Shown: one piece after another, positions 31,200-31,321 of the stretch
How the letters are laid out: every line of letters starts with the position of its first letter
Position numbering within the stretch: position 1 is the stretch's first letter
IMG/VR virus record: IMGVR_UViG_3300047483_000490
Span: 1 to 64,000 of that record
Strand: one strand, 5' to 3'
Length of the DNA stretch: 64,000 nt
Source of the DNA: a virus
Program-made: the position numbers and the translations under genes
The notes under the pieces: model-generated
What the model was told of the DNA's origin: nothing
What the model saw: only the letters and a program-made list of their open reading frames with translations
Database searches by the model: none

Positions 31200-31321
31200 G
31201 GTCGAGTGGTGTAATTGGTAACACAACAGGCCTTAGAGAGCAAGCGGTTCGATTCCACAAAGCTTAATGTAACTGGTAGTTACACATCCTGTTGATGTAG
31301 GTTCGAATCCTGCCTTGGCCA
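31200..31321 (+). ncRNA. tRNA-like RNA with nested T-loop/D-loop insert in the anticodon loop
   Basis: ggtcgag/cttggcc acceptor, aacagg/cctgtt stem enclosing ~55 nt. Confidence 0.7.

Follow-up and report, generated by a model that had tools for sequence, protein, structure and literature searches.

A phage tRNA-shell RNA with a second T-loop module nested in its anticodon loop

The tRNA array of a large uncultured phage contains a 122-nt gene (31200-31321, + strand, labelled X122 here) in which a tRNA shell encloses, within its anticodon loop, a second T-loop followed by a hairpin with a GG-containing loop. Comparison with a distant phage shows this architecture to be conserved, with sequence changes that preserve pairing. 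X122 belongs to a large phage family of RNAs with constant leucine-tRNA-like ends and exchangeable middles. The second T-loop module is what is new in X122; the kind of RNA is a barely characterised, already known one. The reading we prefer, tentatively and at slightly short of an even chance, is that X122 is a stable, unspliced tRNA look-alike in which a second elbow would replace the anticodon.

The window analysed here comprises 64 kb, with a GC content of about 32%, of a 79.6-kb IMG/VR virus fragment (G000) whose completeness is put at about 30% by CheckV. A close relative with terminal repeats represents a complete 256-kb genome. ARAGORN finds 17 tRNA genes in the window, the majority within an array at 31.0-34.4 kb, and with default settings misses the 122-nt gene and at least three tRNA-shell siblings within the 64 kb. 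Comparison of the array (31007-34372) with five other loci (L060, L061, L062, L005 and L006) shows that its composition is highly plastic, since phages with 94-98% identity in the flanking proteins differ in whether they have entire blocks of tRNA genes. The genes that bear most directly on X122 are as follows.

18578-19696, + strand: ATP-dependent RNA ligase gene (Pfam PF09414, 60.4 bits, and PF21189).
31114-31196, + strand: ordinary class-II tRNA-Leu(UAG) of 83 nt, ending 3 nt upstream of X122 (ARAGORN).
31597-31671, + strand: tRNA(UAG) of 75 nt whose variable arm is short and whose loop, C-CUUAGAA-C, has 9 nt (ARAGORN, Rfam).
31918-32460, + strand: HAD phosphatase domain of 'Swiss Army Knife' RNA-repair proteins, within the tRNA array (Pfam PF18143, 77.1 bits).

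In close relatives, the site of the 75-nt tRNA(UAG) is occupied by an 82-nt class-II tRNA-Leu(UAG) (for example L062:3768-3849); the T arm and 3' end of the two are near-identical, including a 20-nt exact match, and the 5' part is remodelled. Also present in the relatives' arrays is a tRNA-like gene of 102 nt, at whose centre lies a hairpin of about 17 bp (L060:6232-6333).

A preliminary description of this DNA had read X122 as an outer tRNA with normal acceptor, D and T arms, and Rfam agrees. The model RF00005 spans the gene end to end (model positions 1-71) at 50.5 bits, where the gathering score is 29, so that X122 is a canonical tRNA by score and by its three arms. The alignment places 56 nt where the model has 6 loop positions. 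The anticodon stem that had been described (aacagg/cctgtt) is real and consists of A26-U44 and ACAGG/CCUGU; it does enclose a long insertion, the length of which is 57 nt rather than the approximate 55 nt given before. As encoded, X122 therefore has no canonical 7-nt anticodon loop, ACAGG/CCUGU closing these 57 nt instead. The shell also has U8, a discriminator A and a 4-nt variable region. Its parts are the following.

31200-31206, + strand: 5' strand of the acceptor stem, GGUCGAG, pairing 7/7 with 31314-31320, including 2 G.U pairs (Rfam alignment).
31209-31224, + strand: outer D arm, GUGU-AAUUGGUA-ACAC, with a 4-bp stem, A14, A15 and G18G19 (Rfam alignment).
31226-31230, + strand: 5' strand of the anticodon stem, ACAGG, pairing with 31288-31292.
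31231-31237, + strand: anticodon-loop remnant CCUUAGA, with a U33-like U, UAG and an A37-like A.
31288-31292, + strand: 3' strand of the anticodon stem, CCUGU (Rfam alignment).
31297-31313, + strand: outer T arm, GUAGG-UUCGAAU-CCUGC, with a 5-bp stem (Rfam alignment, T-loop motif).
31314-31321, + strand: 3' strand of the acceptor stem, CUUGGCC, and discriminator A; CCA is not encoded (Rfam alignment).

The outer D arm resembles that of the clade's class-II tRNA-Leu(UAG). The letters of the remnant, CCUUAGA, recur in the 75-nt tRNA(UAG), and their CUUAGA core is also present in the tRNA-Leu(UAG) just upstream. The folding energy of the whole RNA is ordinary (z = -1.1), and the structure proposed here has -31.7 kcal/mol, compared with -34.3 for the minimum free energy fold.

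Within the enclosed loop, a 48-nt insert contains two structured elements. The second T-loop that had been noticed, ggttcgattcc, is present as GGTTCGATTCC at 31246-31256 and is a perfect match to the T-loop consensus inside the insert. The hairpin tgtaac-tggta-gttaca is exact and lies 3' of it, which gives the T-then-D order that had been described.

31238-31285, + strand: 48-nt insert, where ARAGORN with introns allowed places a 48-nt intron.
31238-31265, + strand: helix P1, GAGC (31238-31241) with GCUU (31262-31265), which closes the inner T arm (RNAfold).
31244-31258, + strand: inner T arm, GCGG-UUCGAUU-CCAC (match to the T-loop consensus).
31268-31284, + strand: inner D-like hairpin, UGUAAC-UGGUA-GUUACA, of 6 bp (exact match).

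RNAfold predicts P1 both in the insert alone and in the full-length RNA when the shell is imposed as a constraint. The inner T stem of X122 is weak, as GCGG/CCAC contains a C.A mismatch; a 2x3 internal loop separates its 4 bp (1 mismatch) from the 4 bp of P1, 8 bp in all. The inner hairpin may alternatively be closed as 7 bp with a 3-nt loop, and it is similar in its 5' half and loop to the outer D arm (UGUAAYUGGUA). The motif GGTTCGAWTCC has 13 copies in the window against 0.01 expected from shuffles. The inner T-loop is the sole copy with GATTCC, the other 12 having GAATCC, and so it was not copied from a resident T arm. The earlier proposal of two elbows and no anticodon can be followed in part. 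The nested T-loop and GG-loop hairpin stand; the absence of an anticodon needs qualifying, since the loop starts with CCUUAGA as in tRNA(UAG).

Conservation of the inner T and D motifs had been set beforehand as the test of the nested module, and a homologue search had been suggested for it. A scan with the D-arm pattern identified L319:12546-12668, a 123-nt homologue of X122 that includes the insert, and both motifs are kept there and in a far more distant locus, L199a (described below). The phage carrying L319 is itself distant: its RNA ligase has 72% protein identity, two other proteins have 63%, and coding DNA is 69-74% identical. The RNA gene is 87% identical by blastn over 131 nt, of which 13 nt belong to the 3' flank (CAAAUGCUUCAUA in X122, with a similar sequence in L319). 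The inserts share 42 of 48 positions (counted by hand on the alignment), so that insert and shell are about equally conserved. Both sequences keep every one of the 35 proposed pairs except for the C.A in the inner T stem of X122, and 98.6% of cells pair, compared with 35-44% when partners are slid by 1-3 columns.

The stems differ at three pairs altered on both sides and four altered on one, with pairing preserved throughout. Two pairs of the acceptor stem are altered on both sides and two on one, and all of them pair; the outer T arm contributes one of each, both of which pair; and one G-C pair in the anticodon stem of X122 is G.U in L319. The inner T stem of L319 is a perfect GUGG/CCAC, its lone change turning the C.A of X122 into U-A. 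The outer D arm and the stem of the inner hairpin are identical in the two genes, the hairpin loop being AGGUA in L319. P1 and the inner hairpin stem are invariant between the two sequences and hence give no covariation signal. The alignment holds two sequences, and the shuffle control for covariation is correspondingly weak, 60 of 500 shuffles reaching the observed value. Part of the acceptor difference could also stem from recombinational swapping of shells rather than from compensatory mutation. The loop remnant differs by an indel, CCUUAGA in X122 being CCGUGAGA, one base longer, in L319.

L199a (L199:428-542) lies on a metagenome contig and has a 3' T arm and acceptor near-identical to those of X122. 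In place of the X122 anticodon stem it has CCCCUG/CAGGGG, and its insert consists of GUUG-UUCGAUU-CAAC followed by UAUGGUAGA. The sequence GGUAG is common to all three genes. Since L199a repeats the layout with unrelated stems, the module of a T-loop and then GGUAG recurs on different stems. By eye, no 7-nt combination of the L199a loop ends yields a loop with U33.

Searches further afield indicate that the gene is rare. Close relatives with 94-98% protein identity, one of them complete at 256 kb, do not have it, nor do 41 related records (6 complete), and blastn against GenBank phages gave nothing covering 31200-31321. An exact scan with a 26-mer of the insert had no match. A pattern joining CTTAGA to a T-loop returned ordinary tRNAs and one tRNA-like gene, L180, only; a pattern for the 3' T arm and acceptor returned L180 in IMG/VR and L199a in metagenomes. 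The covariance model R1, run over about 0.9 Mb of loci, revealed no further strong member (ordinary tRNAs up to 59 bits, L199a 43.7 bits). A scan of genome contigs for a T-loop, GGTAG and a T-loop found no X122-like gene; what it returned was for the most part ordinary tRNAs overlapped by chance and a Bacteroidota element that is unrelated.

Where two tRNA genes lie in tandem, a T arm is followed across the junction by a D arm, as in the insert of X122. X122 might then be a non-functional by-product of recombination between such genes, made of the 5' part and T arm of a first copy followed by the D arm and 3' part of a second, and tolerated given the other tRNA-Leu genes; we give this account a very small probability. 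It fits that the inner hairpin looks like the outer D arm, that the clade's array is very plastic and that the closest relatives lack the gene. However, the gene is kept, at 87% by blastn and with every changed stem position paired, in a phage whose proteins are 63-72% identical, and L199a keeps the layout on different stems. The distant homologue with its insert, the preserved pairing and the layout of L199a argue that X122 is not a dead recombinant, and a decaying pseudogene appears unlikely from these comparisons. Recombination may explain how X122 arose, though not what it is now. Given the T-then-D order and the resemblance between inner hairpin and outer D arm, two tandem tRNA-Leu-like genes may have fused to form it, losing sequence at their junction.

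The ends of L319 are exactly AGUCAGG...ACAGGUUCGAAUCCUGUCCUGACUA, and the same shell ends are found in other IMG/VR phage contigs. This shell (AGUCAGG/CCUGACU-A) carries many unrelated middles of about 20-100 nt, giving RNAs of 85 nt (16 loci) and of 69, 83, 87, 94, 100, 106, 110, 114, 121, 133, 140 and 169 nt. The majority have the D arm GGCGGAAUUGGUAGACGC, which we take to be the D arm of bacterial tRNA-Leu, and many of the middles have no anticodon stem-loop. L319 itself has no tRNA genes nearby; by eye, it lies 120 nt after another shell RNA, and a terminator-like hairpin follows it, together with a run of T. Two of the family's features are present in X122: the acceptor/D/T shell is intact, with a D arm of Leu type and A73, and a structured, member-variable middle replaces or expands the anticodon region.

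Four further tRNA-like stretches lie in the window.

17701-17779, + strand: tRNA-shell RNA of 79 nt without an anticodon arm (T-loop match at 17758); not called by ARAGORN with default settings.
17987-18116, + strand: tRNA-shell RNA of 130 nt, its D arm of Leu type and its middle about 80 nt long (R1, 33.6 bits); not called by ARAGORN with default settings.
34068-34132: tRNA-like gene of 65 nt with acceptor, D and T arms and no anticodon arm (Rfam tRNA, 39.4 bits).
41442-41598: tRNA-like stretch of 157 nt, far from the main array, with an acceptor-like TGTACCG/CGGTACA of 7 bp, a D-arm-like start and the T arm GGTGGTTCGAATCCATC.

The first two flank a small ORF just upstream of the RNA ligase gene. 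The 79-nt RNA shares the middle motifs GCGTAATGTGAAA...TATCACACCC...GGTTGCA with L247:9713-9833.

By design, the closest named relative of X122 is RNA1 of phage T5 (NC_005859, 30501-30644), which is 144 nt long and annotated as a 'tRNA-like stable RNA with unknown functions'; Rfam scores it as tRNA at 24 bits, the model skipping the middle. Both genes lie in a phage tRNA region and have a 7-bp acceptor, a Leu-like D arm and a T arm, and in both a long structured middle (about 85 nt in T5) takes the place of the anticodon arm. Their sequence similarity is limited to tRNA consensus elements. Unlike RNA1, X122 has a 48-57-nt middle on a retained 5-bp anticodon stem, a second T-loop with a GG hairpin, and half of the Leu(UAG) anticodon loop. 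The stability of RNA1 is taken from the annotation of the record, and X122 is known from its sequence.

A single shell with many unrelated, cassette-like middles would also suit a carrier. In such a scheme the shell gives processing and stability, and the middle of about 50 nt (T-loop hairpin and second hairpin) is the active part, either released as a small RNA or displayed on the shell, as aptamers are on engineered tRNA scaffolds. Several shell RNAs per phage, beside small ORFs and an RNA ligase, fit such a role, as does the conservation of the X122 middle, which equals that of the shell. On the other side, the middle has no Rfam match and no free-standing copy, a scan with the hairpin pattern having returned L319 only, and the scheme overlaps largely with the unspliced look-alike. 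We allow it a small probability.

Other tRNA-like RNAs were encountered during the searches. L180:5833-5951 (IMGVR_UViG_3300022555_003232) is a 119-nt tRNA-like gene whose acceptor and T arm are almost those of X122; its middle of about 55 nt is unrelated to that of X122 and has a CAAAGC-GUGA-GCUUUG hairpin. A tRNA with the anticodon CUA (amber-suppressor type) lies 360 nt downstream. A conserved RNA family of about 94-99 nt in phage tRNA arrays (L243:14263-14356, - strand, with L233, L234 and L211) has one acceptor stem and two T arms that flank GUAUGGUAC, and does not reach the gathering level of any Rfam family. Long tRNA genes of 118-119 nt (L215, L239, L240 and L246; Rfam tRNA 34-41 bits for L240 and L246) have an anticodon-stem insert formed by a T arm and then AGUAUGGUAMCGUAAAUCCGCA. 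A stretch conserved at L396, L351, L378, L387 and about 20 other Bacteroidota chromosomal loci has two T arms, separated by a short linker followed by a D-arm-like GGTAGCTCAGTGGGTAGAGCAACAG, and lacks an anticodon arm. GOLLD RNA (Rfam RF02032, 186 bits) is present in a phage tRNA array at L243:4573-5029, with a nested tRNA match at 4892-4963.

X122 can also be read as an intron-containing tRNA-Leu(UAG), with the 48-nt insert (31238-31285) between positions 37 and 38. An endonuclease would cut the transcript and the phage ATP-dependent RNA ligase would join the exons, with end-healing enzymes if needed; the product would be a 74-nt tRNA with a short variable arm, and the T-loop insert would serve as a handle for the cutting enzymes. 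We hold this to be the main alternative, a real possibility though clearly less likely than not. ARAGORN with introns allowed reads precisely this, a tRNA(UAG) with a 48-nt intron at the canonical 37/38 site, and removal of the insert restores the loop CUUAGAA of tRNA-Leu(UAG). The spliced sequence, ACAGG-C-CUUAGAA-U-CCUGU, parallels GGCGG-C-CUUAGAA-C-CCGUC of the 75-nt tRNA(UAG), the intact tRNA most like the would-be product, with a C.U closing the loop in the former and a C.C in the latter. L319 retains U-GAG-A, likewise a leucine anticodon. The phage has the RNA ligase and the RNA-repair HAD domain listed above, and its complete relative G001 encodes two ligases, Rnl1-like and Rnl2-like. 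A tRNA-shaped insert within an ordinary tRNA does occur at L227:2120-2254 (anticodon-loop insert GGAATGT...CCAAG-TTCGATT-CTTGG-ACATTCC-A, of the 'mini-intron' type). Finally, the 5' end of the X122 insert coincides with the start of P1, the helix that bears the T arm.

Evidence against splicing can be summarised as (i) there is no bulge-helix-bulge at the junctions, as neither register checked by hand (CCUU against UACA, CUUA against UUAC) forms the 4-bp central helix; (ii) neither a splicing endonuclease (PF01974) nor RtcB (PF01139) was found in the phage genomes G000 (about 30% complete), G001 (complete) and G005, in a search that matched the control genomes; (iii) the X122 region matches tRNA only in Rfam at E up to 10, with no group I intron (RF00028), ribozyme, tmRNA or YrlA, and 48 nt is too short for group I; (iv) the insert is not tRNA-shaped throughout, a second hairpin following the inner T arm with no CCA, so that its 3' end follows this hairpin and not a minihelix; (v) removal of the insert leaves CUUAGAA with its C.U closing mismatch, a 9-nt loop on a 5-bp stem, and the indel makes the corresponding loop of L319 10 nt; (vi) L199a and many shell relatives are entirely without an anticodon; (vii) no intron-less allele was found in the loci examined, the 41 related records and the D-arm pattern scan; and (viii) an ordinary tRNA-Leu(UAG) lies 3 nt upstream, making a spliced product redundant for decoding. 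The hosts of tailed phages are bacteria, which are not known to have a tRNA-splicing endonuclease.

Two other ways of parsing the gene were tried and rejected. Excision of the insert by RNase P and RNase Z fits its 5' end only. Two complete overlapping tRNAs are not formed, as both halves lack an acceptor partner of their own and an anticodon loop of 7 nt.

A precedent for splicing is provided by the Lak megaphages (Devoto et al., 10.1101/356790), in which 'enigmatic' tRNA introns were described, one insert being itself a predicted tRNA. The likeness lies in a large uncultured phage, a tRNA gene lengthened by an insert in the anticodon loop and the lack of an evident known splicing mechanism. 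For the Lak inserts, however, intron-less alleles exist and the tRNAs that host them are otherwise normal, whereas no such allele of X122 was found, its would-be mature loop is non-canonical and its closest relatives are anticodon-less shell RNAs. The protein-spliced introns of archaea and eukaryotes (bulge-helix-bulge, EndA/TSEN, RtcB or Trl1) resemble the X122 insert in the inferred 37/38 position and the short length, but neither the motif nor an endonuclease or RtcB gene was found for X122. Bacterial group I introns (such as that of cyanobacterial tRNA-Leu(UAA)) likewise lie in a tRNA-Leu-like anticodon loop; they exceed 200 nt, in contrast to 48 nt, and X122 has no RF00028 match. Among tRNA mimics, the tRNA-like domain of tmRNA and the Y RNA-like YrlA RNAs (PMC4201824) share with X122 the mimicry of an acceptor and T arm without a decoding anticodon. 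X122 differs from these in having a complete canonical cloverleaf shell with the additional elbow placed inside the anticodon loop, and it gave no match to their Rfam families.

The sequence alone cannot choose between an anticodon-less decoy and a ligase-spliced intron. The context of the family favours the unspliced form, since anticodon-less middles are common on these shells and T5 RNA1 is recorded as a 144-nt stable RNA. The loop remnant also points this way, as the additional base in L319 suggests that it is not kept as a decoding loop. On the other hand, removal of the insert restores CUUAGAA, L319 has U-GAG-A, the covariation comes from two sequences with a weak shuffle control, and the gene is rare, with none in 41 related records; these count against the unspliced reading. 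The CUUAGA retained at 37/38, together with the phage RNA ligase, keeps the intron reading alive.

We propose that X122 is transcribed with the tRNA array to give an RNA of about 122 nt (125 nt with CCA), and that the shell would let it be processed like a tRNA. The decoding end would be replaced by the module of T-loop hairpin and GG-loop hairpin, and the inner T-loop and GG loop would probably dock as the T and D loops of a tRNA do, forming a second elbow. Such an unspliced RNA would be unable to read codons. It would most likely compete with a real tRNA, perhaps tRNA-Leu(UAG), for a host or phage tRNA-binding factor, candidates for which include a tRNA-cleaving defence nuclease or an elbow-reading enzyme.

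Leucylation of X122 RNA is conceivable by analogy with the LeuRS of Aquifex aeolicus, for which the anticodon arm is dispensable and A73 and the core tertiary pairs (U8-A14, G18-U55, G19-C56) are critical (PMC2377443). The short variable region (4 nt; no long variable arm) may, however, prevent charging. A more specific form of the unspliced reading, which we consider distinctly unlikely, is that X122 is a chargeable but non-decoding 'two-elbow' leucine-tRNA mimic with which the phage would lure or block a tRNA-directed defence of the host (an anticodon nuclease against tRNA-Leu(UAG), for instance) or another elbow-reading factor. The bait would be the second elbow beside the displayed CUUAGA, one swappable cassette on a leucine-tRNA shell.

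The usual view of tRNA arrays in phages is that they help with codon usage or supply spares against tRNA-cleaving defences. X122 shows that they also carry conserved RNAs with a tRNA shell for processing and recognition and no decoding as encoded, and that such genes escape standard annotation by ARAGORN with default settings. If X122 is spliced, it would represent a protein-removed tRNA intron in a bacterial virus, a route without prior demonstration. If it is unspliced, the second elbow gives a testable decoy or competitor hypothesis for tRNA-binding factors, and this would supply a function for the long-unexplained stable RNAs of T5-like phages.
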